Assembly (NCBI GenBank): GCA_019636495.1
Contig: JAHBXL010000014.1
Span: 54,061-118,060, forward strand
Length of the DNA: 64,000 nucleotides
Origin: Phycisphaeraceae bacterium
GTDB lineage: Bacteria > Planctomycetota > Phycisphaerae > Phycisphaerales > UBA1924
Direction: 5' to 3'
Translations under genes and position numbers: made by a program
Shown here: positions 6,606 through 22,455 of the stretch, piece after piece
How positions within the stretch are numbered: position 1 is the stretch's first letter
How the letters are laid out: every line of letters starts with the position of its first letter
Notes under the pieces: generated by a model
The model's input: the letters and a program-made list of their open reading frames with translations, nothing else
Database searches by the model: none
Told to the model about the DNA's origin: nothing

Positions 6606-6697
6606 TCGCATTCCTTCGCCGCGTCGCGGTTGTGTGATCTTTGGTTCAGAATCCCCGTCTCGCGGCAACGCCGGCGAGCCTCCGCCGTACCGCCGCT

Positions 6698-7810: not shown

Positions 7811-9390
7811 GATGCGACCTCCTGGGCTGCACAGGCGACGGCGCGAGCGCCCAGCCGCTCGATGAGGTGATCGCCGACGCGGAGCGCATTGGCCATGATC
7901 GTGAGCGATGGGTTCACCGCCGCCGACGATGGGAAGAACGAAGCATCGACGGCGTACAGGTTGTCGAGGTCGTGCGCCTTGCAGTTCACATCGAGCACGC
8001 TGTCGCGCGGGTCGCGCCCGAACCGAAGCGTGCCGCTCTGATGGCTGACGCCGCTGATGCCCAGCCGTGCGGTCAGACAGGCCGGCGGTTGGTGTCCGGC
8101 TCGCCTGGCGGCCTCCTGCAGGGCGCGAGTGAAGCGATGAACAAGGCGGTCGTAGGCCTCGGTGTTGTTGGGCGTGTACGACAGGCGGACCGCGCCATCG
8201 GGCATCAGTTCCACGCGGTTCGCCGGGTCGGGCAGGTCCTCGGCCGTCAGAAAGAAGTCCACCGTGCGGGACTTGATGCTGTCCACACTCTGGTCGGGCA
8301 ATGCGTCGCCCTTGATCCACTCGAGCGTCCCGCGGTCGGATCTGCCCATGAGTTGGATGGTCCCGAGGGGGAGCGCTCCGTGGCCATCATCGGGATCGCC
8401 GGAGTAGAAGTCCGTCAGTCCGAAGTGCTTCTGGAATCGCGACGGGTTCGGACGGTCATAGACCGCAATGAAACAGCCGTTCTGATGGCTCATGTAGCAT
8501 CGGCCGACCATGCCGGAGGAGTTTGCCAGTCCGCGCGGATGGCCCGCGCAGGCAGACCGCAGGAGCAGCGCGGCGGAGTTGATCGCGCCGCACGCGAGGA
8601 CAAACGCGCGGGCCCGGAACTCGTGCCGCTCGCCATCGCGCTCGACAATGACGCGCTCGATCGAGTCGCCGGCGGAGTCGGTCTCGAGCCGGATCGCCCG
8701 CGCGCGGGTCACAAGCGTCATGGTGGGCCGGAGCAACGCGGGCCGGAGCGCGGAGACGTGCGCATCGGCCTTGGTCTCGGTGGGATCGGGGTAGCCGTCG
8801 AAGTTTCCCAGACGGACCGGGGCGGTCGCGGGCCCGGCCATGTCGGAGCGGATGCCCAGTGGGATCGGGAAGGGCCGCAGGCCGGTCGCCCGGAGTTGCT
8901 GCATCAGTTCGGCGATGCGCGGCTCGGGTTCGAGGGGGGCATCGTCAAAGGGCGCGCTGGCCCAGGGTTCGCACGGATCGCTCCCGCGGAGCCCGCGCAC
9001 GCTGTAGAGATGTTCAGCCTCGGTGTAGTACGGTTCGAGTTCGTTGTAGGTGATTGGCCATGCGGGGGAGACGCCGCCGTAGTGCCGGACCTCTGCGAAG
9101 TCGTGCTCGCGCATCCGCAGCAGCGCTGCGCCGTAGAACTTGGTGTTGCCGCCGACGCAGTAATGCGTGTAGGGCGAGAAGGGCTGCCCGTGTCGGTCGT
9201 GCCACGTCTCGGCCGCCTGGTAGCGCTTGCACTCGAACACCTCGCGCGGATCGGTGTTCTCCTGCTCTCGCGGGACATAATCCCCGCGCTCGAGCACCAG
9301 CACGCGAAGGCCTGACGGCGCAAGCCGGTGCGCCAGCGTCGCCCCTCCCGCACCGGACCCGATGATCACAATGTCGTGCTTGTCGCTCAT
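7807..9390 (-). CDS. GMC family oxidoreductase (FAD-dependent)
   Basis: MSDKHDIVIIGSGAGGATLAHRLA (GxGxxG FAD fold), and the overall sequence matches my memory of GMC oxidoreductases. Start at 9390 overlaps the MIP gene stop (tcat at 9387-9390, i.e. ATGA on the coding strand). Confidence 0.85.
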   Translation of the reverse strand: MSDKHDIVIIGSGAGGATLAHRLAPSGLRVLVLERGDYVPREQENTDPREVFECKRYQAAETWHDRHGQPFSPYTHYCVGGNTKFYGAALLRMREHDFAEVRHYGGVSPAWPITYNELEPYYTEAEHLYSVRGLRGSDPCEPWASAPFDDAPLEPEPRIAELMQQLRATGLRPFPIPLGIRSDMAGPATAPVRLGNFDGYPDPTETKADAHVSALRPALLRPTMTLVTRARAIRLETDSAGDSIERVIVERDGERHEFRARAFVLACGAINSAALLLRSACAGHPRGLANSSGMVGRCYMSHQNGCFIAVYDRPNPSRFQKHFGLTDFYSGDPDDGHGALPLGTIQLMGRSDRGTLEWIKGDALPDQSVDSIKSRTVDFFLTAEDLPDPANRVELMPDGAVRLSYTPNNTEAYDRLVHRFTRALQEAARRAGHQPPACLTARLGISGVSHQSGTLRFGRDPRDSVLDVNCKAHDLDNLYAVDASFFPSSAAVNPSLTIMANALRVGDHLIERLGARAVACAAQEVAS

Positions 9391-10262
9391 GGAATGGTGC
9401 TCGGTGTTGCTTCGCCGCGGCGCGGCATTGGGTGCATCGCTGCCTCGCCGTGTTCGATGCCGACGACGACGTCGCGGTTGCCGTTGCGATTGACGCCGCG
9501 ACAATGCAGCCCGCACCGGTGCGCGGCATGCGGCGTCAGGGTCGGTGCGGCGTCGGCGCGGCCGTACGCAGCGGTGTGGGCGGCGGCGGCGAGCAACATC
9601 GCCGTTGTGGGCGCGACCAAGTAGACCCAGATGGAGTCGGCGCTCCGCGCAGCAAAGGCGGAAGCGACTGTGCGGGCGGGGTTCATGCTCATGCCCGAGA
9701 GTGGCGCCTCGAACGTGATGAACAGCGCAACCATCCCGCCCGCGGCAAAGCCGGTGTACGGCGCGGCGCCGGATCTGCCCAGCGCCAGCACGGCGGAGAG
9801 GAGTGCAAACGAGATCACCGCTTCAGCCAACAGCGCCGCGGCCGTGCCGCGCGAGCCGGGGACGGTCCGCACGTGGCTCACGCTGGGGTGAGCAATGCGC
9901 GGGCCGAGCAGGAGGCCGGCCGCGAGCATCCCGAGAATGCCCCCGCCGAACTGCGCCGCCACGTAGAACGCCGCGTCGTGCGTTGCGATCCGACCCATCG
10001 CGGCGAACGAAAGCGTGACCGCGGGGTTCATGTGCGCGCCCGAGCGCTGACCCCAGGGCGAGTAGATCAGTGCGACGGCTGTCAACCCCATCGCCGCGCC
10101 GATGGTCGCCCGCCGCGCGAAGGGCGATCGGATGCGCCGGCTCAATCGCGAGTCGGGGTGCTGCACAAGGGCCACCGCGATGCTCGCCGAGAGCATGAAG
10201 ATGCCCAGCAGCGTGGCCTCGATCAGATAGAGCGGCCAATGCCGACCGAACGTGTGGAGCAT
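9387..10262 (-). CDS. MIP/aquaporin family channel with C-terminal His/Cys-containing extension
   Basis: Two NPA boxes (GAHMNPAVT and GMSMNPART) and six predicted TM segments. A tail of about 55 aa follows the last TM (HAAHRCGLHCRGVNRNGNRDVVVGIEHGEAAMHPMP). Confidence 0.85.
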   Translation of the reverse strand: MLHTFGRHWPLYLIEATLLGIFMLSASIAVALVQHPDSRLSRRIRSPFARRATIGAAMGLTAVALIYSPWGQRSGAHMNPAVTLSFAAMGRIATHDAAFYVAAQFGGGILGMLAAGLLLGPRIAHPSVSHVRTVPGSRGTAAALLAEAVISFALLSAVLALGRSGAAPYTGFAAGGMVALFITFEAPLSGMSMNPARTVASAFAARSADSIWVYLVAPTTAMLLAAAAHTAAYGRADAAPTLTPHAAHRCGLHCRGVNRNGNRDVVVGIEHGEAAMHPMPRRGEATPSTIP

Positions 10263-10295: not shown

Positions 10296-11198
10296 TCAGC
10301 CGCCGGTCTCGAACCCCGGATACAACGTCATGCCGCCGTCCACGAACAGGCTGGCCCCGGTGATGTAGTCGGCCTCGTCGGAGCAGAGCCACACCGCAAG
10401 CCGGGCGACGTCTTCGACTTCGCCGATGCGCTTGTAGGGAATGAGTTTCAGAAGTTCGTTGTACGCCTCGTGCGTTTCCCACGCGGCACGGTTGATCGGC
10501 GTGCGGACCGCTCCCGGGCAAATGCTGTTCACGCGGATCCGCCACGGGGCCACCTCCTGCGCGATGCTCTTCATCATGAGCATCACGCCGCCCTTGCTCG
10601 CGGCGTAGTTCACGTGCCCGGCCCACGGAATGACCTCGTGTACGCTCGACACGCACACGATCTTCCCCGCCGCGCACGAGACGCCTGACCGGACGCCGCG
10701 GCGTTTGAACTCTCGGACCGCGGCCCGCGCACAGAGGAACTGCCCGGTGAGGTTCACCTCCAGCACCCTGCGCCACTGCGCGAGCGACATGTCCTCGATG
10801 GGCGCATCCTGCTGGATACCGGCGTTGTTCACGAGGATGTCGACCGCGCCGAACTCGTCGACAGTTCGCCGAAACATCGCCTCGACCTGCTTCTCGTCGG
10901 AGACATCGGCGGACACGGCGACCGCGCGCCCACGGTGTGCGCATCCGCAGTGCGTCGCTTCGTGCACGGCCGCGAGCGCGTCGGCGTCGGGTCCGATGTA
11001 GTTCACGACCACGTTTGCGCCCGCAGCGCACAGGGCATGCGCGATCCCGCGCCCGATTCCCGACGAGGCCCCGGTGACGATCGCCGTCTGCCCCTTGAGA
11101 ACGGGCCTCGCCTCGCATGCGGGCATCACGACCTGGGGCAGGTCGTCTGGCAGCAGGTCACGGATGTGAGCGCTGTTCATGATCTGTGCGGTGGACAT
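10296..11198 (-). CDS. SDR family oxidoreductase (glucose 1-dehydrogenase-like)
   Basis: TGASSGIG cofactor motif, NNAG, catalytic YAASK. ATG at 11198 is preceded by AGGAG. The ORF-track start at 11417 is an extension. Confidence 0.9.
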   Translation of the reverse strand: MSTAQIMNSAHIRDLLPDDLPQVVMPACEARPVLKGQTAIVTGASSGIGRGIAHALCAAGANVVVNYIGPDADALAAVHEATHCGCAHRGRAVAVSADVSDEKQVEAMFRRTVDEFGAVDILVNNAGIQQDAPIEDMSLAQWRRVLEVNLTGQFLCARAAVREFKRRGVRSGVSCAAGKIVCVSSVHEVIPWAGHVNYAASKGGVMLMMKSIAQEVAPWRIRVNSICPGAVRTPINRAAWETHEAYNELLKLIPYKRIGEVEDVARLAVWLCSDEADYITGASLFVDGGMTLYPGFETGG

Positions 11199-11435
11199 GC
11201 GTGCTCCTGTGCGTGGTTCGTGTGGCCCCGCGACCGGTACAGCCACCGGGGCTCGGTTGAGATGCCGCTCCAGTGCCGCGGTTTCGCCGCGGAGTCGCTG
11301 GTGTACACTGCGCAAACCGCCGTAACCCACTGGGCGCAGCGGCATCCAATGTGCGTGCCAGCACACGCGCCGCCGCCGACCGCCGACGCACCCCGAACGC
11401 CCCTTCGGCGGAACCACGGGGGAACCGAGGTCTCC

Positions 11436-12083
11436 ATGACTACTTCACCGATCAGCGGCGTCCACACGTCCGAAACGCGCCCGGAGCCGACCGGTGACGA
11501 AGAACATCTTTTGCTGAGCCGGCTCCGCGCCGGCGAGGACCGTGCGTTCGACGATCTGGTCCGCCTCGCGGCGGGCCGGATGCTCGCCGTAGCACGTCGA
11601 ATGCTTCACCGCGAGGAGGATGCGCAGGACGCCGTTCAGGAGGCGTTCCTCAGCGCGTTCCGCTCGCTGGACCGATTCGATGGTCGATCACGACTGACCA
11701 CTTGGCTGCACCGCATCACGGTCAATGCCTGCCTGATGAAACTCCGCTCGCAGCGACGCCGGCCCGAACGGGCCATCGAAGACCTGCTGCCGAAGTTTGC
11801 CGAGGACGGGCACCAGGCCATGCCCTCGCGCCCGTGGCGAGAAGAGGCGACCTGCTCGGCCGATTCGACCGAAGTCCGCGAACTGGTCCGGACCAAGATC
11901 GATGAACTGCCGGAGCAGTACCGGGTGGTGCTCGTACTGCGCGACCTGGAGGAACTGAGCACCGAAGAGACCGCCGAGGCCATGGACATGTCGGTCAACG
12001 CGGTCAAGACCCGGCTTCACCGCGCGAGGCAGGCGCTGCGTGCGCTCCTCGATCCGTACTTTCTCGAGGAGTCTTCCAAGTGA
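11436..12083 (+). CDS. ECF (sigma-70 family) RNA polymerase sigma factor
   Basis: Region 2 (DAVQEAFLSAF, TWLHRITVNACLMKLR) and region 4.2 (LSTEETAEAMDMSVNAVKTRLHRARQAL). ATG at 11436. Confidence 0.9.
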   Translation: MTTSPISGVHTSETRPEPTGDEEHLLLSRLRAGEDRAFDDLVRLAAGRMLAVARRMLHREEDAQDAVQEAFLSAFRSLDRFDGRSRLTTWLHRITVNACLMKLRSQRRRPERAIEDLLPKFAEDGHQAMPSRPWREEATCSADSTEVRELVRTKIDELPEQYRVVLVLRDLEELSTEETAEAMDMSVNAVKTRLHRARQALRALLDPYFLEESSK

Positions 12084-12364
12084 GCGAACCCACACCCCGT
12101 CAGGCCCCTGCGACCGGGAGCGGCATCACCTGCCGCGAGGCCATCGACTTCATCATGGCCTATCTCGACAACGAACTGCCGATGGAACAGCGGCACGAGT
12201 TCGAGCGTCACCTCTCTGTCTGTCCTTCATGCGTGAACTACCTCGACTCATACCAGCGCACAGTCACACTCGGGCGAGAGACGCACCGCGGCAACACGGA
12301 CGATGTGCCCGCGAGTCTGCTGAAGGCCATCGGCGCTGCGCGAAAGCGGAGCGGGAGCGCATGA
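12080..12364 (+). CDS. zinc-binding anti-sigma factor (ZAS, zf-HC2), soluble, RsrA-like size
   Basis: HLSVCPSC is an H-x3-C-x2-C motif, with an upstream Cys (ITCREAI). 94 aa, no TM helix. The GTG start overlaps the sigma factor stop (GTGA at 12080-12083). Confidence 0.75.
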   Translation: MSEPTPRQAPATGSGITCREAIDFIMAYLDNELPMEQRHEFERHLSVCPSCVNYLDSYQRTVTLGRETHRGNTDDVPASLLKAIGAARKRSGSA

Positions 12365-13269
12365 GCGCCGCACACGGTCCGTCGAGCACCCGCGAGCCCC
12401 GCGCCGTGGCGTGCATGGAAGTCTGGGGAGGAAGCGGCCGATTCTCGGGGCTGCTCTCGATGCCCGGCAACGATGTTTCCGTCGTGAGCGAGCCTCACGC
12501 CGGCGGCGCCGAGGGCGGCGACGTGTACTACCTCTCCAACTGTGCCGCGGGTTCGATCACGCGCTTCGTGCTCGCCGACATCTCCGGACACGGCGTCGAG
12601 GCGGCGGGCATTGCGCGAATGCTGCGCGACCTGATGCGCAGGCGCATCAACACGGCGAACCAGACGCGCTTTGCGCTCGAACTGAACCGCGCGTTCCTCG
12701 CCGCGGCCGATGGAGCGCGGTTCGCCACCGCCCTGCTCGCGACCTACTTCGCCCCGACCGATCACCTGGTCATCTGCAACGCGGGGCACCCGCGTCCGCT
12801 GCACTTGTCCGCCGAGAGCGGCGAGTGGCGCGTTCTCGACGGCCAGTCCCGCGACGCATCGACAGGTCGGAAGGCCGGCATCGCCAACCTGCCGCTGGGC
12901 ATCATCGAGCCGACCAACTATGAGCAGTTCGCCGTTCGGCTCGGACGAAATGACGTCGTGCTGGTCTACAGCGACGCACTCACCGAGGCGCGGGGCGTGG
13001 ATGGAGCGATGCTGGGCGAGTCTGGCCTGCTCGCCGAGGCAGCGCGGGTCGATCCCACCTCACCCGACATTGCCGAGCGTGTGCTGTCAGCGGTTCGAGC
13101 GCGGACTCCTGACGGCATCGACGACGATGCGACCGTGATTGCCATCCGGCACAACGCCGCCGATCCGCCGGCCCCGGGGCTCTCGGCGGTGTGGGCAGCC
13201 GCCGCGGCGATGCTCGGACTTGGTATCAGGGAGTCCTTGCCCGGGAGCGGCGCGGCGCAGCCGGTGTAA
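12361..13269 (+). CDS. PP2C/SpoIIE-family serine phosphatase (RsbU-like catalytic domain only)
   Basis: GGDVYY, ADISGHGVEAAGIA, VLVYSDALTEA and DDATVIAI motifs typical of SpoIIE/PP2C. ATG at 12361 overlaps the anti-sigma stop (ATGA). Confidence 0.8.
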   Translation: MSAAHGPSSTREPRAVACMEVWGGSGRFSGLLSMPGNDVSVVSEPHAGGAEGGDVYYLSNCAAGSITRFVLADISGHGVEAAGIARMLRDLMRRRINTANQTRFALELNRAFLAAADGARFATALLATYFAPTDHLVICNAGHPRPLHLSAESGEWRVLDGQSRDASTGRKAGIANLPLGIIEPTNYEQFAVRLGRNDVVLVYSDALTEARGVDGAMLGESGLLAEAARVDPTSPDIAERVLSAVRARTPDGIDDDATVIAIRHNAADPPAPGLSAVWAAAAAMLGLGIRESLPGSGAAQPV

Positions 13270-13298
13270 CCCGATTGCACGGCGGGCATCCAAGGGCC

Positions 13299-13511
13299 AT
13301 GCTGATCGCATCGGCGGTACTCGTTGCGTGCGGGTTGTACCTGGTGGCCGGGTTCGTGTTCGGCGTGATGTTTGTCTGGGCGCTCGTTTCGCGGCTCGAT
13401 GCCGCGACCCGCAGCGCGCTATGGACCTTCCGGCTGTGCATCCTGCCGGGCTGCATCGCGCTCTGGCCGATGCTCTTCGCCCTGCTCCTGCGGAAAGGGA
13501 GACACTCTTGA
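13299..13511 (+). CDS. small hypothetical membrane protein (70 aa, 2 TM)
   Basis: MLIASAVLVACGLYLVAGFVFGVMFVWALV...CILPGCIALWPMLFALLL. The stop overlaps the next candidate start (TTGA at 13508-13511). Confidence 0.45.
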   Translation: MLIASAVLVACGLYLVAGFVFGVMFVWALVSRLDAATRSALWTFRLCILPGCIALWPMLFALLLRKGRHS

Positions 13512-13642
13512 CCCGATCCCAACGCCGCGCGCACACGGTCATCTGGCTCGTGATTGTCCCGGCAATCGCACTGCTTCTGGCCGGCGCTCTGCACGCGCGA
13601 AGCCGCCAGCCCTTCGCCGATGCCCGGAGCATGCAGCCATGA
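13508..13642 (+). CDS. candidate 44-aa single-TM peptide
   Basis: TTG start, LTRSQRRAHTVIWLVIVPAIALLLAGALHARSRQPFADARSMQP. Bridged by overlaps on both sides (TTGA at 13508, ATGA at 13639). Below the ORF-track size cutoff. Confidence 0.25.
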   Translation: MTRSQRRAHTVIWLVIVPAIALLLAGALHARSRQPFADARSMQP

Positions 13643-14718
13643 GCATCGGTTACCGTGCCGTGCAGTGGAGTCGCTCCAAGCGCGTCTATGACCTGATCGC
13701 GGCGGGCGCCGCGGCCTCGTTCATCGTCGTGTTCATCGCGGTGGGCAAGGCCGCGTGGCGCGGAGAGCACGCCGTGAGCGACGAGGTGCTGTTCCTGCGG
13801 GCGACGGGCGCATGCGCGCTGGCGCTGCTGCACGTGGTCCTCTGCATCGGGCCCTTGGCCCGCTTTGACTCGCGGTTCCTGCCCGTGCTGTTCAACCGCC
13901 GCCACCTTGGCGTGCTGACCTTCCTCGTTGCACTGGCACACGGCGTTGTGGCGATCGGCTACTACCACGGCTTCGGCTCGGCCAACCCCCTCCTCTCTCT
14001 GCTGACGAGCAACACCAACTTCGGTTCGCTCGGGGCGTTTCCCTTCCAACTGCTCGGTGCCGGCGGATTGCTGATTCTGTTTCTGCTCGCCGCGACCAGC
14101 CACGACTTCTGGCTCAAGAACCTCTCAGCGCGCGTGTGGAAGTCGCTCCACATGCTCGTGTATGCCGCGTACGCGATGCTGGTCGGCCATGTCGCGCTCG
14201 GGGCGATGCAGACCGACCGCGGCGTGCTCCTGCCCGCACTGGTCATCGGCGGCGCGGCGATTGTCTGCGGCTTGCACATCGCGGCAGGGCTGCGCGAGTC
14301 GGCCCGGGACCGCGCCGACGCGCGCGTTCGTGGCGACGACGGCGAGGAGTGGTTCGATGTCGGCCCGGCGATGGAGATTCCCCTGGACCGCGCGCGAACA
14401 GTGTGCACGCCCCGAGGCGACCGCATCGCGGTGTTCCGCCACGATGGCGGCGTCTCCGCCGTGACCAACCGCTGCGCGCACCAGGGCGGACCGCTTGGCG
14501 AGGGCGCAGTGATCGACGGGTGCATCACCTGCCCCTGGCACGGCTGGCAGTACCGCGCGCACGATGGCTGCGCCCCGCCGCCGTTCGCGGAGAAGATCGC
14601 CACCTACCAGGTCCGCATCGTTGCGGGGCGAGCGCACGTTTCCTCGCGCGCACTGCCGCCGGGGTCCCCTGTCCCGCCCGCGCGGATCGAGGAGCACGCC
14701 GATGTCCGAGCGGACTGA
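13639..14718 (+). CDS. ferric-reductase-like transmembrane (di-heme b) domain fused to a Rieske [2Fe-2S] domain
   Basis: TM His pairs (NRRHLGVLTFLVALAHGV; SLHMLVYAAYAMLVGHVAL) as in YedZ/FRD domains. C-terminal Rieske motifs CAHQGGPL and CPWHGWQY. ATG at 13639. Confidence 0.75.
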   Translation: MSIGYRAVQWSRSKRVYDLIAAGAAASFIVVFIAVGKAAWRGEHAVSDEVLFLRATGACALALLHVVLCIGPLARFDSRFLPVLFNRRHLGVLTFLVALAHGVVAIGYYHGFGSANPLLSLLTSNTNFGSLGAFPFQLLGAGGLLILFLLAATSHDFWLKNLSARVWKSLHMLVYAAYAMLVGHVALGAMQTDRGVLLPALVIGGAAIVCGLHIAAGLRESARDRADARVRGDDGEEWFDVGPAMEIPLDRARTVCTPRGDRIAVFRHDGGVSAVTNRCAHQGGPLGEGAVIDGCITCPWHGWQYRAHDGCAPPPFAEKIATYQVRIVAGRAHVSSRALPPGSPVPPARIEEHADVRAD

Positions 14719-15457
14719 GAACCATCCATCGACCAACGATCTGTACGTCAACTACCTGCCGATGCCCCGGCGGCACGCTCGGTTCCTGCGAGTCGCGCTG
14801 CCCGCGGCCCTGTGGCTGCTGGTCGGCGCTGCGCTCGCGTGGGCTCTGACACAGCGCGACCCGGGCGGCGCGGTGTGGGACGACGGCAGACCCGTCCAGA
14901 TCCGCGGCGTGCTGAGCACCCGCCCCTGCGCCGTGCTGCACACCGACGAAGGTCCCGTCCTGCTTGTCGAGGTCGGCAAGCACGGCCCTCGCCGACTTGG
15001 CGCGTTCGAGGGCGCGATGTGCGCCGCTTCCGGCTGGCCGCTTCGACGTGACGGCCGGCGCATGCTCGAACTGGAACCCGGCGACAACGCGGTTCGTGTC
15101 GAAGCCGCAACGCCGCCGCGGCCACTGGACGGGCCGCGAGTGCTCGGGCCGGTCATGCTCCGCGGCGAGATCGTCGATGCCAAGTGCTTCCTGGGCGCGA
15201 TGAAGCCGGGAGACGGCAAGACGCACAAGGAGTGCGCCACGCTGTGCATTCGCGGCGGCATTCCCGCGATGCTTGTCTCCCATGGCGCGGACGGAGCGCC
15301 CGTGTATCACATTCTCACCGCGATGGACGACGGGCCCATCGACGCATCCATCCATCCGCTCATCGCCGATCTCGTTGAGATCCGCGGCGAACTGATCGAC
15401 TGGAACGGCCTGCGCGCGGTGCGCATCGAGCCCTCGGGTGTTCGGCGCGCAAACTGA
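14702..15457 (+). CDS. hypothetical TM-anchored protein with conserved-looking Cys/His motif
   Basis: MSERTEN start with a 17-nt overlap on the upstream gene. TM helix FLRVALPAALWLLVGAALAWAL. C-terminal GEIVDAKCFLGAMKPGDGKTHKECATLCIRGGIP. Confidence 0.6.
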   Translation: MSERTENHPSTNDLYVNYLPMPRRHARFLRVALPAALWLLVGAALAWALTQRDPGGAVWDDGRPVQIRGVLSTRPCAVLHTDEGPVLLVEVGKHGPRRLGAFEGAMCAASGWPLRRDGRRMLELEPGDNAVRVEAATPPRPLDGPRVLGPVMLRGEIVDAKCFLGAMKPGDGKTHKECATLCIRGGIPAMLVSHGADGAPVYHILTAMDDGPIDASIHPLIADLVEIRGELIDWNGLRAVRIEPSGVRRAN

Positions 15458-15546
15458 AACCGCGCGGCACGCCGCGGCATCCGAGCAGCGTCGTTGCAAC
15501 CAATCCGTTCACGCGCGTCCCCACACACCAACTCGGAGAACACACC

Positions 15547-16491
15547 ATGATGGCTGTCTTTGTCTCATCGATACTCTCGCTGGCCTCACTGTCGGCACCA
15601 CACGACCCCGCCAAGGGCGCGCCCACTCCACCCGCGGAAGCCGAAAGCGCGGCGATGCGCACATTCACCGTCGGCGAGGGCGATCGGCGCTTCGACTCCT
15701 CCACTGCGCGCGGCCGCTACCTCGCGATCCACTTCCTCCTCGGCGACGAGTGCCCCTTCTGCACGCGGATGATGCGCGAGTACGAGGAGAAACTGCCGAC
15801 CGTCGCGGGCGTGCGGCAGATCTTCGTGCAGAACATCCCTCCCGAGGCCTTCGATGCCGCCGTGCGCGCCAATCCCGAAGGAACGCGGAACCTGTATCGT
15901 GATGCGGACGGGCGGCTGGCGGAAATGTTCAAGATTCCGGGCGGATACCGCTTCCACGGCATGACCATGGCCTATCCCGCGCTGGTCGTGCTCGATGGCG
16001 AGGGCCGCGAGGTCTTCCGCCACATCGGCGCCAGCAACGCCGATCGGCTGCCCTTCGAGCAGTTCGCGGCCAGGATTGCCGACCTGTCGCGCGATCCCGC
16101 GGTCTCGCACGCCAACGCCGAGAAGGGGCTCGCGCTCGCGGGCTTTGACCCGGTCGCCTACGTCGACCAGAGCGCCGCGACCCCGGGTGATCCGAAGATC
16201 GTCTCGATGCACCGCGGCCTGACGTACCGGTTCTCGTCGGCCCGTCATCGCGCCCTGTTCAACGATGCGCCGGAGAAGTATGCGCCCGCCTACGGCGGCT
16301 GGTGCGCGACCGCCATGGCCGAGGGCCGAAAGGTCGAGGTGAACCCGCGAAGTTTCAAGATCGTTGGTGGACGTCTGATGCTGTTCTACAAGGGCGCGTG
16401 GGGCGATGCGCTCAAGGACTGGAACAAGGACGAGCCGGGCCTGACGCGCAAGGCCGACGAAGCCTGGTCGCGGACAATCGCGGGCCGATGA
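15547..16491 (+). CDS. secreted thioredoxin-fold (redoxin/AhpC-TSA-like) domain fused to a YHS-type domain
   Basis: Signal-like N-terminus. LAIHFLLGDECPFCTRMM (CxxC in a Trx-fold context). The C-terminal half (GFDPVAYVD...YRFSSARHRALFNDAPEKYAPAYGGWCATAMA) resembles YHS domain proteins. Confidence 0.7.
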   Translation: MMAVFVSSILSLASLSAPHDPAKGAPTPPAEAESAAMRTFTVGEGDRRFDSSTARGRYLAIHFLLGDECPFCTRMMREYEEKLPTVAGVRQIFVQNIPPEAFDAAVRANPEGTRNLYRDADGRLAEMFKIPGGYRFHGMTMAYPALVVLDGEGREVFRHIGASNADRLPFEQFAARIADLSRDPAVSHANAEKGLALAGFDPVAYVDQSAATPGDPKIVSMHRGLTYRFSSARHRALFNDAPEKYAPAYGGWCATAMAEGRKVEVNPRSFKIVGGRLMLFYKGAWGDALKDWNKDEPGLTRKADEAWSRTIAGR

Positions 16492-16662: not shown

Positions 16663-19600
16663 TCACGGGCACCCGGCAAACCACGCGCTGAGGAACGCGA
16701 AGATGTCGGGGACCGCGAGCACGCCGTTGTTGTCGAAATCGGCACGCGGTTCATAGGCAAACCATGCCGCGAGGAACGCGAAGATGTCCGGCACCCCGAC
16801 GACGCCGTCGCCATCGAAGTCGGCCGGGCACGGCGGGGCGATCTGCACGAGGTTGCCCGGCACGTCCACGACACCGTGGTTGATGAGCGTGTTGTAGTAC
16901 ACTTTGCACGCGGGGTTGATGAGCCGGCTCCCCGCGTGGATGCGCAGCGTGTCGACGTACACCGCCTCGCACGCGCCCTGCCCGAGGTTGTCATTGTCGT
17001 GCTGATCGACCAGCCGGACGATCGTCGGCGCAGGGCCGATGACCAGTTGGCCGAGCGGGTACTGCCCCGCGACCGCGCTGTCCAGGCCGCTCGCGACCGG
17101 GCCCATGTCGCGCGACATCACCTCCAGCGTGCGCTCCCCGCCGGGGCCTTCCATGCGCAGCGTCGCCGCGGCGAGGTTGAACCGCGTATGGCTGTTGATG
17201 GCGCAATCGAAGTTCCCGCCGACGAGCACCGCCGCGTCGTCCGCGGTCATCCGCAGGTCGGCATCGGGCCCGATGATCAGGTTCCCACTGACTTCAACTG
17301 CCGGCGGCCCGCCCAGGCACCCCGAGCACACCGGGCCGATGATGGTCCCGTTGTTCACCAGCGTGCCGAAGATGTACAGCGTGCCCGAGCGGATGGTCGT
17401 CGTCGCGCCCGATTCGTTGCGGTAGTCGCCGAACTGCGCTGTCGAGCCGAAGATGTTGACCGCGCTGCGGTTCCAGAACAGCGGCGCGGCCAGGCCACCC
17501 CCCGACATGTTGAACGTGTCGAGGTTGACGAACGGCCCATCGGCGATCATCGACGAGTTGGACAGGAACGTGGTCGGGGCGATCACCGTCGCGCCGCTCC
17601 CGCCGATCAGGTTCAACGCCGCGCCCTGCTCGACGCGCACCGGCCCGTCGAAGCAGACCTCCGCCGCGTTGATCGTCAGCGACGAGTTGATTCGCGCTGT
17701 GAGTGTCCCGCGGGAGCCGAGGCTGAACATCTCCCCGATCAGATCGACCGATGACCCCGCCGAGGAGCGCACCTGCCCGAAGATGTCCAGCGACTGACCC
17801 GGGGCCGCGGCGAGGAACGAAGAGCCCCCCAGCGTCAGGATCGAGGTCGAGGGCGTCCGCAGGTCGCCCGTGGAGTTCAGGCCCAGCGAACGGCCCAGCG
17901 TGTCCAGCGATCCGATATCCGCCCAGGCCTGCTGCGTCGCGGTGATCTGATGCCCGCTCTGCGCCCCGAGCAGCGCCGCGGCCAGCGAGGCGTGCGCCGT
18001 GCCAAGCGAGTTGTTCGCGGCAAACGCAAGGCCGTCGCGCGGCACTTCAAACAGCCGTACGGAGCCTTGATTGCTGTTGGACCCCACATCATCCAAGTAC
18101 GCTCCTGCAAACACGGTCCCTTCAGCGGCGGCGAGCGACCATGCCAACTGATCCTGTGCCGCGGCATCGGCGACCACCAGTTTGCCCTGCTCGGTCCAGG
18201 TCGTACCGTTGCGCGAGAACACGTAGACGAGCCCGCGATTGCTGAGGGTGCTCTCCGTGTCGTTCAAAGCCCCGATGTACGCCCGGTCACCATCCAGCGC
18301 GACAGACCGTCCAAAGAAGCCGTTGACCCTGGCATCCGGCGCGACCAACTGTGCCTGCTCAACCCAACCTCCGGATGTACGTTCGAAGACATAGACCAAC
18401 CCCACGTTCAACAATCCCTGCATGCTCTTGCCGGGCGCTCCCACCAGGACAGTCGTGCCTTGAAGAGCAACCGAGAAAGCAAAGTTGTCATCTTGTCCAG
18501 GAACTCCGGTTCCGATGCGGCCATCGGATTCCCAACCGCCGAACTGGCCCGGGACAAGGGCATACACCTCTCCGTTCGAACCAGTGAACTGAGGCACGGT
18601 GACCACGACCACTCGATTCGCTGAGGCAATGATGCGGCCGCCGTACCCATACCCAAAGCAGTCGCCGCAATCGAATGGGCCGAACGAGGCTTGGCTCCAG
18701 GTCGAACCCGAACGGGTGTAACGGAACGCAAGCCCGCGAGCGAAAGCGTCCCCAACTGTCCGGCCCGGTGCACCGATGAACGCAATGCTCTCCGAAACCA
18801 GAGCCACGGCGCTCCCGAACCGCTGGCTTGCCTGCAAACCCACGCCTGTCGAAGTCGTCAGTTTGGCCTGCTGCGTCCATGTGGCGCTGGAGCGGACGAA
18901 AACATACGCCGCGCCCGTGTCTGTAAACGCATCCACGTCGTGATTCGGCGCTCCGACAACGATCGTGTCGCCCTTGATGGCCACGGCCGCGCCAAACCTA
19001 TCCGACGCCGCGCCATCGGCCGCCGTGAGTTTGGCCTGCTGCACCCACGACAGCCCGGACCGCACGAACACATACGCTGCGCCACGATCCAGGTCGCCGC
19101 CGACATCGCTGCGTGGCGATCCGACAACAATGGTGTCCCCATCGATGGCCACCACGGTTCCGAACTCGTCATTCGCCGCCCCATCCGATGCCAGCAGCAT
19201 CAGATCCGGTCCGATCCACTTCGTCCCCAGCCGCGAGAACACCCACGCCGAGCCCTGATCGGTGTTCCCTTCGACATCATCGAAGGGCGCGCCGCCCACG
19301 GCCGTATCGCCCCACAGCGCGACCGCCGCGCCGAACTGGTCCATCGCAGTCCCATCGGGCGCGGCGAGTCGGGCCTGCTGCATCCACGCCGCGCCGCTCC
19401 GCGCGAAGATGTACATCGCGCCGCGGTTCGAAGCGCCGTCGATCGTCTCCAGCCATGCCCCCGCGGCCAGCGTGTCGCCGTGCAATGCCACGGAATGGCC
19501 CAGGTTGGCGTTGGCCGTCCCGGGCGATGCCGTGACCTTGGCCTGCGGATTCCACGCCGCGCCCGTCCGCACATACACGTAGACCGAGCCCTGGTTCGCG

Positions 19601-22455
19601 TTCGCGCCGATGTCGCCGCCCGGCGCGCCGACGGCGAGCGTGTCGCCCCAGATGCTCACCGATTGGCCGAAAAGGTCCGCGGCCGCGCCATCGAATGCCG
19701 TGAGGTGCGCCTGCTGCGACCACGATGAGCCGTTGCGGGCAAAGACATGGACCGAGCCCCGGTCGGTTGCTGCGCCCACATCGTCCAGCGCCGCTCCCAC
19801 CACCGCCCAATCGCCCCAGACCGCGACGGCGTTGCCGAACCGATCATCCTCCGCACCGGCCGCGGCCTCCAACTTCGCCTGCTGGCTCCACGATGTGCCC
19901 GTGCGCGTGAACACGTACGCCGCGCCCTGGTCGCTGTTGCCGCCGATGTCGGCCAGCAGCGCGCCCACCACCACCGTGTCCGCCCAGATCGACACCGCGC
20001 GCCCGAAGGCATCCTGCGCAGCGCCATCCTCGGCGATGACCCTGGCCTGCTGCGTCCAGGTCGTGCCCATGCGCGTGAAGATGTACGCCGAGCCGTGGTT
20101 GTTCACACCGCCGGTATCGTCCCCCGGCGCGCCGACAACGATGGTGTCCCCATCAATGGCCACCGATGAGCCGAAGTTGTCGTCCGCGGCACCATCGGCC
20201 GCGGTCAACACGGCCTCGTGCACCCAGCCCGACCCGGTCCATCGGTACACGTGGGCCGAGCCCTGGTTGGCATTGGCGCCGACATCATCTCCATCAGAGC
20301 CCACCACCAGCGTGTCGCCATCGATCGCCACCGCGCCACCGTAGCGGTCGTTCGCAGCGCCCGAGGGCGGCCCGAGTTGAACGGGCGTGCTCCGCGGCGA
20401 GGTAAAGGACTCGACCGTGATCTCCGGACCCGGTGGCGGCGGCTCGGCCGGCAAGGCCACGCGGCGGATACGGTTGACGCCAAGCCCCGCATCCGAGATG
20501 TACACCGCGCCATCGGGGCCGACGCCCACGCCGCCGAGTTGGGTGAAGGTCGCATCGAGCGCGGGCCCGCCATCGCCGGTGTTGCCGATTGCGCCGGTAC
20601 CGGCAAAGAAGGAGATCTCGCCGAGCGCGAGGTCAGCGCGCCACACGCGATGCGCGCCACCGATGAGCAGACGGCCCTGACCATCGACCGCGACATCGAC
20701 GGCGAAACCGAGATTCGCCGTGTTCGGCGACCCGCTCGCACCGCTCCCGCCGCCCCCGCCGGCGACGATCGACCAGGTGGAAGTGGCGGTGTTGTAGCGG
20801 TGGATGCGCGAGTTTCCAGTACGGTCGAGTACATACACATTCTCGGCCGCATCGACCGCGACTCGGCGCGGATCGATAAACACGTCCGACAGCGATGTGA
20901 TGATCCCGGTGACAGCATCGACGCGGCGGAGGGCGAAATTGCTCGTGTCGGCAATATAGATATCGCCATCGGGCGCGACAGCGACACCTTCCGGGACCGC
21001 CAATCGTGCAGAAGTCGCCGGACCGCCATCGCCCGTGTAGCCGATCAACCCGTTGCCCGCAACGGTCGTGATGATGCCGGTGTTGCGGTCAATGCGGCGG
21101 ATGCGGTGGTTGGAGGCGTCGCAGAAGAACACATTGCCAGCGCTGTCAACGGCGATTCCGAGCGAGGCAGCAATCTGTGCCGCGGTGCCCGGCCCGCCAT
21201 CGCCGGAGTATCCCAATGAGCCCGTGCCCGCGATGGTTGTGATAATGCCCGTCGCGGCATCCACACGGCGAATGCGGAAATGGGTGTTGTCGACGATGAA
21301 CACATTGCCGCTCGCATCGACCGCGACGCCCTGTGGCGCTGCGAGTTGCGCTGCCGACGCTGGCCCGCCATCGCCCAGACTCGCGCCACCGCCCGCGAAG
21401 GCGTTGATGATCAGAGGGGGCGGCGGCGGCGGTGGCGGCGCCACGCGTCGGATGCGGTTGACGCCAAGCCCCGAATCCGAGATGTACACCGCGCCATCGG
21501 GTCCGCTCCCGACACCCCCGAGCAGCACAAAGGTCGCATCGAGCGCTGGTCCGCCATCGCCATCATCCCCCTCCGCGCCGGTTCCGGCAAAGAAGGAAAT
21601 CTCGTCGAGCGCGAGGTCGGCGCGCCACACGCGCCGAGTACCGGCAATGAGCAAGCGGCCCTGGCCATCCACAGCGATGTCGCGGGCGACACCGAGATTC
21701 GCCGTGTTCGGCGACCCGCTCGCACCGCTCCCGCCGCCCCCGCCGGCGACGATCGACCAGGTGGAAGTGGCGGTGCTGTAGCGGTGGATGCGCGAAGAAC
21801 TGCTGCGGTCCATCACGTAGACGTTCTCGGCCGCATCGACCGCGACTCGGCGCGGATCGAGAAAAACGTCAGACAGCGATGTGATGATCCCGGTGACGGC
21901 ATCGACGCGGCGGAGGGCGAAGTTCTGCGTATCGGCGATGTAGATATCCCCATCCGGCGCGATGGCGACACCTTGAGGAAGTGCAAGCCGCGCGGAAGTC
22001 GCCGGACCGCCATCGCCCGTGTAGCCGAACAGGCCGTTGCCCGCAACGGTCGTGATGATGCCGGTGTTGCGGTCAATGCGGCGGATGCGGTTGTTGGAGA
22101 AGTCGCAAAAGTAGACATTCCCCACGCCATCGACGGCGATGCCGATCGTTCCCGAGATCATGGCCGCCGTCCCCGGTCCGCCATCGCCGGAGTATCCGAA
22201 TGTTCCCGTTCCCGCGATGGTGGTGATGATGCCCGTCGCGCCATCCACACGGCGAATGCGGAAGTGGGTGTTGTCGGCGATGAACACATTGCCGCTCGCA
22301 TCGACCGCGACGCCTTGTGGCGCTGCGAGTTGCGCTGCCGAAGCCGGCCCGCCATCGCCCAGACTCGCGCCACCGCCCGCGAAGGCGTTGATGGTCTGTG
22401 CACAAGCCATCGACCCACACAGCAGAACCGCTGCCGCGAACATCGACTTCAACAT
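16663..22455 (-). CDS. giant secreted multidomain protein: 2x NHL-repeat modules, about 14 FG-GAP-like repeats, beta-helix-like region, C-terminal dockerin-like DIFAFL..WFA module
   Basis: Signal peptide MLKSMFAAAVLLCGSMACAQ. NHL-like units (GVAVDASGNVFIADNTHFRIRRVD). About 14 repeats of D.FG.SVAI.GDT.VVGA. The C-terminus is CPADFDGDGVVGVPDIFAFLAAWFAYEPRADFDNNGVLAVPDIFAFLSAWFAGCP. Confidence 0.85.
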   Translation of the reverse strand: MLKSMFAAAVLLCGSMACAQTINAFAGGGASLGDGGPASAAQLAAPQGVAVDASGNVFIADNTHFRIRRVDGATGIITTIAGTGTFGYSGDGGPGTAAMISGTIGIAVDGVGNVYFCDFSNNRIRRIDRNTGIITTVAGNGLFGYTGDGGPATSARLALPQGVAIAPDGDIYIADTQNFALRRVDAVTGIITSLSDVFLDPRRVAVDAAENVYVMDRSSSSRIHRYSTATSTWSIVAGGGGGSGASGSPNTANLGVARDIAVDGQGRLLIAGTRRVWRADLALDEISFFAGTGAEGDDGDGGPALDATFVLLGGVGSGPDGAVYISDSGLGVNRIRRVAPPPPPPPPLIINAFAGGGASLGDGGPASAAQLAAPQGVAVDASGNVFIVDNTHFRIRRVDAATGIITTIAGTGSLGYSGDGGPGTAAQIAASLGIAVDSAGNVFFCDASNHRIRRIDRNTGIITTVAGNGLIGYTGDGGPATSARLAVPEGVAVAPDGDIYIADTSNFALRRVDAVTGIITSLSDVFIDPRRVAVDAAENVYVLDRTGNSRIHRYNTATSTWSIVAGGGGGSGASGSPNTANLGFAVDVAVDGQGRLLIGGAHRVWRADLALGEISFFAGTGAIGNTGDGGPALDATFTQLGGVGVGPDGAVYISDAGLGVNRIRRVALPAEPPPPGPEITVESFTSPRSTPVQLGPPSGAANDRYGGAVAIDGDTLVVGSDGDDVGANANQGSAHVYRWTGSGWVHEAVLTAADGAADDNFGSSVAIDGDTIVVGAPGDDTGGVNNHGSAYIFTRMGTTWTQQARVIAEDGAAQDAFGRAVSIWADTVVVGALLADIGGNSDQGAAYVFTRTGTSWSQQAKLEAAAGAEDDRFGNAVAVWGDWAVVGAALDDVGAATDRGSVHVFARNGSSWSQQAHLTAFDGAAADLFGQSVSIWGDTLAVGAPGGDIGANANQGSVYVYVRTGAAWNPQAKVTASPGTANANLGHSVALHGDTLAAGAWLETIDGASNRGAMYIFARSGAAWMQQARLAAPDGTAMDQFGAAVALWGDTAVGGAPFDDVEGNTDQGSAWVFSRLGTKWIGPDLMLLASDGAANDEFGTVVAIDGDTIVVGSPRSDVGGDLDRGAAYVFVRSGLSWVQQAKLTAADGAASDRFGAAVAIKGDTIVVGAPNHDVDAFTDTGAAYVFVRSSATWTQQAKLTTSTGVGLQASQRFGSAVALVSESIAFIGAPGRTVGDAFARGLAFRYTRSGSTWSQASFGPFDCGDCFGYGYGGRIIASANRVVVVTVPQFTGSNGEVYALVPGQFGGWESDGRIGTGVPGQDDNFAFSVALQGTTVLVGAPGKSMQGLLNVGLVYVFERTSGGWVEQAQLVAPDARVNGFFGRSVALDGDRAYIGALNDTESTLSNRGLVYVFSRNGTTWTEQGKLVVADAAAQDQLAWSLAAAEGTVFAGAYLDDVGSNSNQGSVRLFEVPRDGLAFAANNSLGTAHASLAAALLGAQSGHQITATQQAWADIGSLDTLGRSLGLNSTGDLRTPSTSILTLGGSSFLAAAPGQSLDIFGQVRSSAGSSVDLIGEMFSLGSRGTLTARINSSLTINAAEVCFDGPVRVEQGAALNLIGGSGATVIAPTTFLSNSSMIADGPFVNLDTFNMSGGGLAAPLFWNRSAVNIFGSTAQFGDYRNESGATTTIRSGTLYIFGTLVNNGTIIGPVCSGCLGGPPAVEVSGNLIIGPDADLRMTADDAAVLVGGNFDCAINSHTRFNLAAATLRMEGPGGERTLEVMSRDMGPVASGLDSAVAGQYPLGQLVIGPAPTIVRLVDQHDNDNLGQGACEAVYVDTLRIHAGSRLINPACKVYYNTLINHGVVDVPGNLVQIAPPCPADFDGDGVVGVPDIFAFLAAWFAYEPRADFDNNGVLAVPDIFAFLSAWFAGCP
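20455..22392 (-). repeat. tandem duplication, 2 x approximately 984 bp (328 codons), inside the giant gene
   Basis: aa 22-339 and aa 350-667 are near-identical (INAFAGGGASLGDGGPASAAQLAAPQGVAVDASGNVFI... through GVNRIRRVA), separated by a Pro8 linker. Confidence 0.85.

Follow-up and report, generated by a model that had tools for sequence, protein, structure and literature searches.

A conserved four-gene unit of Phycisphaerae predicted to form a transmembrane redox complex, with a ferric-reductase-type/Rieske subunit and a periplasmic tandem-OB Cys3His protein

The 64-kb window analysed here (64,000 nucleotides of contig JAHBXL010000014.1 from a Phycisphaeraceae bacterium; lineage Planctomycetota; GC content 68%) contains five plus-strand genes, which we call g1 to g5, downstream of genes for an extracytoplasmic function (ECF) sigma factor and a zinc-binding anti-sigma (ZAS) factor. 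The conserved unit is g1-g4; g5, the sigma factor, the anti-sigma factor and a PP2C-type phosphatase are facultative, each being found in roughly 30-47% of the loci with long flanks. It is well supported in silico that the products of g1-g4 form one membrane complex, and that the sites predicted for a cytoplasmic [2Fe-2S] cluster and two transmembrane haems lie in line with a periplasmic Cys3His site. This complex is probably the envelope-directed electron-export arm of a regulon that responds to thiol oxidants or electrophiles.

A preliminary description of this DNA had placed five co-directional reading frames here, and the open reading frame (ORF) calls agree with it. The first, g1 (13299-13511, plus strand, as for all five), encodes a small membrane protein of 70 aa with two transmembrane (TM) helices, which has no family match and carries a conserved signature; g2 (13508-13642) encodes a 44-aa protein with one TM helix, starts with TTG and overlaps its neighbours at both ends. 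The 359-aa product of g3 (13639-14718) joins a six-TM, YedZ-like ferric-reductase-type domain (FRD) of the di-haem b kind to a C-terminal Rieske [2Fe-2S] domain (PF01794 and PF00355), and g4 (14702-15457) encodes a 251-aa protein predicted, with the help of an AlphaFold2 (AF2) model, to be a single-pass protein with its N-terminus inside and two periplasmic OB-like beta-barrels. The last, g5 (15547-16491), encodes a 314-aa secreted protein in which a thioredoxin fold (CPFC) is followed by a YHS-type (seleno)protein domain, as matched in Pfam and NCBIfam. The overlaps of the first four genes are exact in the sequence: TTGA at 13508-13511 for g1/g2, ATGA at 13639-13642 for g2/g3, and 17 nt at 14702-14718 for g3/g4.

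Relatives of g4 were sought by a motif-seeded scan of one genome per species, in which 305 genomes were positive; the best 80 of these 305 were all metagenome-assembled genomes (MAGs) of Phycisphaerae or other Planctomycetota, and the g4 of the window is 98% identical to a protein of a Phycisphaeraceae MAG. Searched in full with a hidden Markov model, the g4 family comprises 2677 clusters at 50% identity (E<=1e-3), of which 1185 reach E<=1e-30. We distinguish split-type loci, with separate g3 and g4 genes, from fused-type loci, in which g3 and g4 are one protein of ~600 aa; the latter make up a second large lineage, with Acidobacteriota among its members, that was sampled as >80 metagenome loci. 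The gene immediately 5' of g4 is g3 in 83 of the 84 split-type loci, and the remaining locus ends at a contig edge. Among loci with enough upstream DNA, g1 was found in 70/71 of the split type and 54/54 of the fused type, and its family signature, from 73 aligned orthologues, reads Y..G......F...G....D...FR....PG..ALWP. An ORF resembling g2 was seen in 73 of 75 loci, each closing in a 4-nt ATGA overlap with g3 and each encoding M-T-R-x2-R-R-x-H-x3-W followed by one TM helix. Conservation of this kind marks both tiny ORFs as real genes, even though profile scans of Pfam and NCBIfam gave zero matches for g1, g2 and g4. Taken together, g1-g4 are linked in about 150 independent loci of two lineages, in essentially all that were sampled, with overlaps of the translational-coupling kind. 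A lack of co-occurrence had been named as a possible objection; it does not apply to these four genes, and g5 is facultative. All-against-all ORF clustering of the Phycisphaerae loci confirmed only g1, g3, g4 and the accessories already known; this clustering was noisy because of antisense shadow ORFs in DNA of 68% GC.

Some variation in the two small genes was observed. In four loci (L039, L061, L070 and L071) g1 and g2 are fused into a single three-TM protein about 1.0-1.4 kb upstream of g4, and in the fused-type lineage g2 often encodes 150-166 aa, with an extracytoplasmic tail of ~110 aa (L084, 6552-7004; L085, 6504-7004).

The proposal that g3 fuses a four-histidine ferric-reductase-type domain to a Rieske domain is borne out by the Pfam matches and by the invariant ligands. 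The protein scores 47.4 bits against Ferric_reduct PF01794 (cutoff 28; residues 56-182) and 60.3 bits against Rieske PF00355 (cutoff 20.3), and a hydropathy scan finds six TM segments. Two histidine pairs, H89/H101 on TM3 and H171/H184 on TM5, are invariant and common to the split and fused families; they follow the bis-haem b pattern of the FRD superfamily and are the predicted haem ligands. Both families also share, without exception, the Rieske ligands (C279, H281, C298 and H301) as well as H155 (in 'TSHDFW') and H213 (on TM6). An additional cysteine, C295, is also invariant, and H110 is ~90% conserved. TM3 and TM4 are joined by an uncharged periplasmic loop (NPLxSLLxSNTNFxSLxAFPFQ) that is strongly conserved and could be a docking surface for g4.

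The fold of the Rieske part was compared using the AF2 model of a fused homologue, P0462, which stands in for the g3 of the window. It superposes on 2qpz with a TM-score of 0.86 and a root-mean-square deviation (rmsd) of 1.9 A, and on BphA3, CarAc and T4moC with TM-scores of 0.8-0.86 and rmsd of ~2 A. By this model the g3-type Rieske domain appears closest to the electron-shuttle ferredoxins of dioxygenase systems, unlike the catalytic oxygenases. A Pfam scan finds the Rieske domain alone after TM6, with no FAD/NAD(P)H dehydrogenase domain, and we therefore rejected an assignment of g3 to the long form of the NOX/FRE proteins; with a Rieske input in place of the FAD/NADPH domain, a separate reductase is needed. 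Homologues of g3 are frequently labelled 'MsrQ' in source annotation. We do not follow this label, since g3 scores 38.4 bits against the MsrQ model NF003831 (E 8.8e-10), under the cutoff of 130, and no Oxidored_molyb (MsrP) gene was found at the window locus or in the annotated neighbourhoods. Resemblance to the bc1/b6f complexes, which likewise combine a cytochrome b, a Rieske protein and small subunits, was rejected on topology and fold: g3 has no Cytochrome_B match, no twin-arginine before TM6 and a single-Cys C-x-H loop, and its Rieske domain is predicted to be cytoplasmic, whereas that of bc1/b6f is inserted by Tat, lies on the positive, periplasmic side and has a disulfide that stabilises the cluster.

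The second large subunit, g4, is defined by a Cys3His site whose spacing had been given as C-x11-H-x2-C-x3-C; read from the sequence it is C-x12-H-x2-C-x3-C (C162, H175, C178 and C182). This site is present with fixed spacing in all 264 of 264 family members, in the context GEIVDxKCxLGAMKPGxGKxHKxCAxLCxxGGIP. The AF2 model of g4 (pLDDT 85) shows a TM helix at residues 23-49 and then two OB-like barrels, and charge bias places the N-terminus in the cytoplasm. The Cys3His residues lie on a helical insertion of the second barrel, in a loop of low model confidence, as expected of a ligand site that the model leaves unfilled. Foldseek matches of the model are to generic OB folds (SSB, LysRS) with a best E of 1.4e-3, and we did not accept them as homology; a profile search against PDB sequences gave 0 matches at E up to 10. 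DUF5818 (PF19135) was likewise set aside as the family of g4: the window protein is unmatched even at E 10, and two homologues are borderline at 27-28 bits (cutoff 27), over the first barrel only.

In dual Sec/Tat-inserted cofactor proteins (Tooke et al. 2017, PMC5449189) a twin-arginine is conserved ahead of the final TM helix. Ahead of the TM helix of g4, RR is found in 99/207 sequences, RK or KR in 32/207 and neither in 76/207, and Tat export of a pre-loaded cofactor domain was thus rejected as a family-wide trait. Since the twin-arginine needed to export a pre-folded Fe-S domain is not conserved, an Fe-S cluster at the predicted periplasmic site is less probable than a thiol site or a mononuclear metal.

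Natural fusions tie g3 and g4 together. Several relatives of g4 are proteins of ~600 aa that contain the FRD, the Rieske domain and then the g4 part, and a search with one of them retrieved >100 distinct fused proteins with 42-51% identity; the named carriers are one member of the Thermoanaerobaculia (Acidobacteriota) and one 'Planctomycetes bacterium'. The order within the fusion is FRD-Rieske-YVGYLP-TM7-2xOB, and the AF2 model of one fusion (pLDDT 81, pTM 0.76) has 6+1 TM helices. In g3, 17 lysines and arginines lie on the inside and 3 on the outside of the six TM helices, which places both termini of the membrane domain, and with them the Rieske domain, in the cytoplasm; because the fusions insert TM7 between this cytoplasmic Rieske domain and the barrels, the OB barrels with the Cys3His domain fall on the periplasmic side. 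A topology with incompatible compartments had been named as a possible objection to the conduit, and the charge bias, the fusion order and the fusion model instead agree on a Rieske domain inside and a Cys3His domain outside.

From these observations we infer cofactor binding and the direction of electron flow. The four products of g1-g4 would assemble in the inner membrane into a redox complex, about 10 TM helices in all, that carries electrons from the cytoplasm to the periplasm. A cytoplasmic donor would reduce the C-terminal [2Fe-2S] cluster of g3, of the Rieske-ferredoxin type, and the electron would cross the membrane via two b haems held by the four invariant histidines of TM3 and TM5. 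It would then reach the Cys-x12-His-x2-Cys-x3-Cys site of the tandem-OB protein g4, a metal centre or redox-active thiol that may be either catalytic or a hand-over point, with g1 and g2 serving as small structural or assembly subunits. The complex would in this way supply reducing power outside the cytoplasm, beyond the reach of NAD(P)H and thioredoxin, by a logic like that of MsrPQ or DsbD although the parts are different. The reading of the locus as a transmembrane electron conduit beside a regulator is accordingly one that domains, linkage and topology favour; its cofactors, the transfer of electrons and a thiol-sensing role of the anti-sigma factor are predictions.

The regulatory genes lie directly upstream. 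The sigma factor (11436-12083, plus strand, as are the next two) matches Sigma70_r2, Sigma70_r4_2 and Sigma70_ECF and is followed by a 94-aa anti-sigma factor of the zf-HC2 (ZAS) type (12080-12364) that scores 46.9 bits against zf-HC2 (cutoff 22.2). A hydropathy scan finds no TM segment in the latter, in keeping with a soluble protein. Its ligands, C18-x25-H44-x3-C48-x2-C51, are all at least 90% conserved among 33 orthologues from both lineages, and this spacing, C-x25-H-x3-C-x2-C, is that of the RsrA zinc/redox site; the protein scores 36.4 bits against the RsrA equivalog TIGR03988, under the cutoff of 62.5. Between the anti-sigma gene and g1 lies a gene for a SpoIIE/PP2C-type phosphatase (12361-13269; PF07228, E 6.7e-34). 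It lacks a sensor domain at its N-terminus, and its C-terminal residues 271-289 are hydrophobic (LSAVWAAAAAMLGLGIRES), a possible membrane tether; no STAS or kinase partner was noticed near it.

A dyad search of upstream regions yielded the motif GTAAC-N16-CATC, and the form GTAAC-N15-17-CATCCAA occurs exactly twice in the window, with 0 copies expected. Both copies read GTAACC-N14-GCATCCAA and are candidate ECF promoters. One (11322-11349, plus strand) lies 87 nt 5' of the sigma ATG, where it is a candidate for autoregulation, and the same motif precedes the sigma gene in L026 and L034. The other (13266-13293, plus strand) stops 6 nt short of the g1 ATG, and its -35 element runs over the stop codon of the PP2C gene, so that the leader would be very short or absent. 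An ECF-type promoter had been suggested upstream of 13299, and a candidate is thus found there as well as before the sigma gene. Possible variants occur 62 nt 5' of g5 (GAAACC-N15-GCATCCGA, 15456-15484, plus strand; at chance level if taken alone), 58 nt 5' of a divergent SDR gene (GAAACC-N14-GCATCTCAA, 11257-11285, minus strand) and, as a core match, 5' of a GMC oxidoreductase gene (9456-9479, minus strand). The variant before g5 is placed as the exact motif is in L009, L011, L059, L072 and L081. The core AACC-N14-15-GCATC has 6 copies in the 64 kb against 1.37 expected, and none of 100 shuffles reaches six. All six are confined to 9.4-15.5 kb, and five are correctly oriented 5' of GMC, SDR, sigma, g1 and g5.

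The sixth core copy (AACC-N15-GCATC, 14761-14784, minus strand) is antisense in the 5' part of g4; it is probably due to chance, although an antisense transcript across the g3/g4 junction could start from it. A consensus scan showed no sigma-70 promoter-like sites, and its terminator-like matches (4 against 2.1 expected) were uninformative.

Other genomes show the same arrangement: ~27 of 47 loose motif matches lie 20-200 nt 5' of sigma, g1, g5, DinB_2 or anti-sigma genes, and the motif also precedes GMC, VOC and SDR genes in L057, L072, L081, L074 and L077. In ~12 other genomes it stands 60-190 nt 5' of g1 where no sigma gene is adjacent, a pattern that points to g1-g4 being controlled by the sigma factor and not just lying next to it. 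On this basis we infer that g1-g4 belong to the regulon of the ZAS-controlled ECF sigma factor. The g1-g4 operon would then be an output of an ECF sigma factor held by a soluble RsrA-like zinc anti-sigma factor, and one promoter-like motif would drive sigma, g1-g4, g5 and the divergent SDR-MIP-GMC-VOC operon.

The facultative g5 had been described as a secreted fusion of a thioredoxin fold and a YHS domain. The domains are matched, barely so for AhpC/TSA (29.4 bits, cutoff 26) and Redoxin (26.7 bits, cutoff 26.6) and clearly for NCBIfam NF041384, 'YHS domain-containing (seleno)protein' (113.6 bits, cutoff 70); the CPFC motif, however, is present in the window copy and kept in only 5 of 24 orthologues. 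In the YHS-type domain 'YGGWCAxAM' is at least 90% conserved over 24 aligned sequences, and its single conserved cysteine is presumably the family-defining Cys/Sec position; two outliers with tandem YHS domains have YGGYC instead. When g5 was compared with the PDB by phmmer, nothing above noise came back. The gene occurs in 15/51 split-type and 7/19 fused-type loci with long flanks, in varying position and strand.

Divergent from the sigma gene, the window carries an operon of four minus-strand genes identified by Pfam matches: a glucose-1-dehydrogenase-like SDR (10296-11198), an MIP channel (9387-10262), a GMC oxidoreductase (7807-~9390) and, last, a two-domain VOC/glyoxalase-type protein (6698-~7650). 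Neighbours were first counted within ~9 kb of the module in the long-flank loci (51 split-type and 19 fused-type, given here in this order). Sigma genes are present in 24/51 and 5/19, anti-sigma genes in 22/51 and 2/19, and PP2C genes in 16/51 and 0/19; DinB_2 is found in 18/51 and 11/19, TANGO2 in 17/51 and 7/19, and an ATP-grasp-like protein in 17/51 and 10/19. A second count, taken anywhere in the locus with slightly different flank limits (51 split-type and 18 fused-type), gave DoxX in 13/51 and 8/18, MIP in 13/51 and 3/18, GMC in 13/51 and 3/18, and the two-domain VOC/glyoxalase protein in 9/51 and 5/18. The SDR, MIP, GMC and VOC gene types occur near the module in ~25% of the long-flank Phycisphaerae loci and in some of the fused type. 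One fused-type genome, L168, carries the whole set (SDR, g1, the fusion, sigma, ZAS, YHS, MIP, GMC, VOC, DoxX, DinB_2, TANGO2 and VTT), and there the homologues of the SDR-MIP-GMC-VOC operon run in the same direction as the fused, sigma and ZAS genes.

Fused-type loci have further neighbours of their own. Directly 5' of g1, 32 of 49 have a FabG-like SDR gene; at 24% identity the SDR of the window was not accepted as its orthologue. Directly 3' of the fused gene, several loci encode OlsB-like (E 1e-42) and OlsA-like (E 4e-38) aminolipid acyltransferases, which one locus encodes as a single fused protein. The FRD-Rieske-OB gene is also followed, in this lineage, by a gene for an alpha/beta-hydrolase-DedA/VTT-ATP-grasp-like protein. 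These downstream genes, acyltransferases and hydrolase-VTT-ATP-grasp proteins, lie at 8805-13551 in L084, 8827-9687 in L085, 3745-4605 in L167 and 787-2631 in L166.

Two further minus-strand genes of the window adjoin the region. A GH63/MGH1-like glycoside hydrolase gene (3873-6884) lies next to the VOC gene, and a gene of the same type is found beside the module in L168 (3075-5837), so that synteny with L168 reaches past the redox genes. On the other side, 16663-22455 encodes a 1930-aa protein with 12 FG-GAP_2 repeats and NHL/teneurin-NHL repeats, whose N-terminal ~340 residues are duplicated near-exactly (about 20-340 and 350-680) and which has a short Asp-rich motif twice at its C-terminus (DFDGDGVVGVPDIFAFLAAWFA / DFDNNGVLAVPDIFAFLSAWFA).

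The gene set around the module (DinB_2, VOC, DoxX, SDR, redoxin and YHS) resembles known thiol-oxidant and electrophile regulons, and this makes export of reducing power to the envelope under stress the most likely role of g1-g4. Several points weigh against it. Fewer than half of the loci have sigma and anti-sigma genes next to the module, and the promoter motif comes from a pattern search and not from an unbiased method or experiment. The commonest fused-type neighbours, FabG-like SDRs and aminolipid acyltransferases, point to lipid chemistry over stress defence. Among the genes conserved nearby, none encodes a flavoprotein reductase that could pass electrons to the Rieske cluster; SDRs are conserved there, but they are not known to reduce Fe-S clusters. 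With the CxxC of g5 mostly degenerate, a thiol relay from g4 to g5 does not appear to be a family-wide property. The Cys3His site of g4, finally, could bind zinc for structure alone; OB folds with an inserted zinc ribbon exist, for example in RPA70.

Four other roles were weighed against stress-linked electron export, and the strongest of them, itself unlikely, is that of a periplasmic metal reductase or metallochaperone, in which g4 holds Cu or Fe at its Cys3His site and Cu(II) or Fe(III) is reduced outside the cytoplasm, as by the eukaryotic FRE and STEAP proteins of the same superfamily, for uptake, cuproenzyme assembly or detoxification, with the YHS domain of g5 taking part in metal handling. 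The H-x2-C-x3-C part of the motif puts three ligands on one face of a predicted helix, a geometry known in Cu(I) sites such as those of CsoR and Csp1, and CusF is a periplasmic copper chaperone with an OB fold. The YHS-type domain of g5 is apparently co-regulated with the module, and g3 belongs to the FRD superfamily, whose founding activity is to reduce ferric and cupric ions (Zhang et al. 2013, PMC3591440). The ~150 neighbourhoods, however, show no recurring metal transporter, P-type ATPase, multicopper oxidase, TonB receptor or metal-responsive regulator; the regulator is instead a ZAS of the thiol/oxidant type, the DinB_2, VOC, DoxX, SDR and TANGO2 partners are not metal-homeostasis genes, and the YHS-type family NF041384 is defined by a Cys/Sec redox residue. 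Less probable again is an enzyme that oxidises or reduces an envelope lipid, at an aminolipid head group or acyl chain, during lipid remodelling, with the OB domain binding the lipid at the outer leaflet. Such a role would account for the FabG-like SDR and the OlsB-/OlsA-like acyltransferases that flank the fused-type genes, and for the alpha/beta-hydrolase-DedA/VTT-ATP-grasp-like fusions and TANGO2 that recur in fused-type loci, but these lipid genes are absent from the window and near-absent in the Phycisphaerae loci (Acetyltransf_5 in 4/84), and the association could be one of co-regulated envelope stress genes. Moreover, no known lipid-modifying enzyme is built on an FRD-Rieske scaffold, and the Rieske domain is of the electron-shuttle type and comes with no oxygenase catalytic domain.

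We give very little weight to the idea that the complex is a sensor of the periplasmic or membrane redox state that signals to PP2C, the anti-sigma factor and sigma. The anti-sigma gene, the PP2C gene and g1-g4 follow one another without a break, often with overlaps; in the PP2C, whose end is hydrophobic, a sensor domain is not recognisable; and the conserved YVxYxP of the cytoplasmic N-terminus of g4 could be a docking site. Yet more than half of the loci hold the core with no sigma, anti-sigma or PP2C gene nearby, PP2C is absent from the fused-type lineage, and the anti-sigma factor has a complete RsrA-like sensing site of its own; the sigma-type motif before g1 where no sigma gene is adjacent also marks g1-g4 as a target. 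Electron flow in the reverse direction, with a periplasmic substrate oxidised at g4 and electrons passed inward to the Rieske cluster and cytoplasmic acceptors, is similarly improbable. Direction is not fixed by sequence, and FRD haems and Rieske ferredoxins are reversible carriers, but ferredoxin-type Rieske clusters have low potentials of about -150 mV, and such a potential would demand a very strong periplasmic reductant. The characterised FRD systems (NOX, FRE, STEAP and MsrQ) all send electrons outward or to a periplasmic partner (PMC3591440).

A bolder form of the electron-export reading, which we put forward tentatively and consider rather less likely to hold than to fail, is that g1-g4 represent a new class of electron export, independent of quinones and of thiol cascades and set under an RsrA-like switch, that repairs or detoxifies an envelope damaged by oxidants or electrophiles in Planctomycetota, Acidobacteriota and their relatives. 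If so, g1, g2 and g4 would each represent a new protein family, and the Cys3His-OB domain would hold a new type of redox or metal cofactor site; three of the four module proteins (g1, g2 and g4) are at present without family assignment. Delivery of reducing power to the periplasm of Gram-negative bacteria is known for few systems, the DsbD/CcdA relays and MsrPQ (fed by quinol or Fre), and the module points to a further, widespread solution: hundreds of metagenome contigs of the second lineage carry the fused form. The carriers, Phycisphaerae and Acidobacteriota, dominate soils and waters and are genetically hard to study. The locus also offers a candidate regulon and promoter motif for an ECF/ZAS pair outside the Actinobacteria, and it joins DinB_2, TANGO2, DoxX, VOC, GMC, MIP and YHS-type (seleno)proteins in one testable stress island.

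Known systems share parts of this design. The regulator resembles SigR-RsrA of Streptomyces, which has a soluble ZAS with the same C-x25-H-x3-C-x2-C site and an autoregulated sigma factor; it differs in that the anti-sigma factor falls under the RsrA cutoff (36.4 against 62.5) and a PP2C gene is inserted in the operon. Regulons that respond to thiol-reactive electrophiles include that of SigR-RsrA in Streptomyces and those of MhqR/YodB/CatR in Bacillus subtilis, the latter with DoxX and VOC dioxygenases. Like these, the candidate regulon is rich in DinB_2, VOC dioxygenase/glyoxalase, DoxX, SDR and redoxin genes; to our knowledge, none of the known ones includes an FRD-Rieske membrane complex.

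Among redox systems, MsrPQ (YedYZ) of E. coli also has a YedZ/FRD haem b protein, which feeds a periplasmic partner that repairs oxidative damage, and the system is induced by oxidants, but here the predicted acceptor is a membrane-anchored double-OB Cys3His protein, electrons would enter by a fused cytoplasmic Rieske domain and not from quinol or Fre, and there are two extra small subunits. With NOX, FRE, SpNOX and STEAP the module shares the six-TM FRD core, the histidine pairs on TM3 and TM5, a C-terminal cytoplasmic electron-input domain and, as predicted, outward flow; it differs in that the input of g3 is a one-electron Rieske [2Fe-2S] domain in place of an FAD/NADPH dehydrogenase, and in that the predicted acceptor outside is a dedicated protein, g4, as opposed to O2 or free metal. 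The CYBDOM/FRD-DOMON proteins similarly tie a transmembrane di-haem conduit to an extracytoplasmic beta-rich acceptor that passes electrons to extracellular targets, although the membrane fold differs in the case of b561, the acceptor is a haem-binding DOMON domain in place of the OB Cys3His protein, and the donor is ascorbate. The DsbD/CcdA-TlpA systems, too, export cytoplasmic reducing power to periplasmic thioredoxin-fold proteins, and g5 is a secreted protein with this fold, but those systems are pure thiol-disulfide cascades that contain neither haem nor Fe-S clusters, and no DsbD or CcdA homologue was found at the module.

Our literature searches returned nothing on the operon, on g1, g2 or g4, or on DUF5818, the TANGO2/DinB neighbourhoods or a Planctomycete ZAS/PP2C, and only the domain survey of 2013 on the FRD-Rieske combination. 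In that survey (Zhang et al. 2013, PLoS One 8:e58126, PMC3591440) model M4 lists a Rieske 'electron transfer agent', as well as FMN, fused to a bacterial FRD; it is a domain-architecture entry, which does not give partner genes, topology, regulation or function. We thus found no characterised equivalent of the g1-g4 module. It belongs with FRD-type transmembrane electron transfer, and what is new in it is the Rieske input domain, the OB Cys3His acceptor, the two small subunits and a defined regulatory context.

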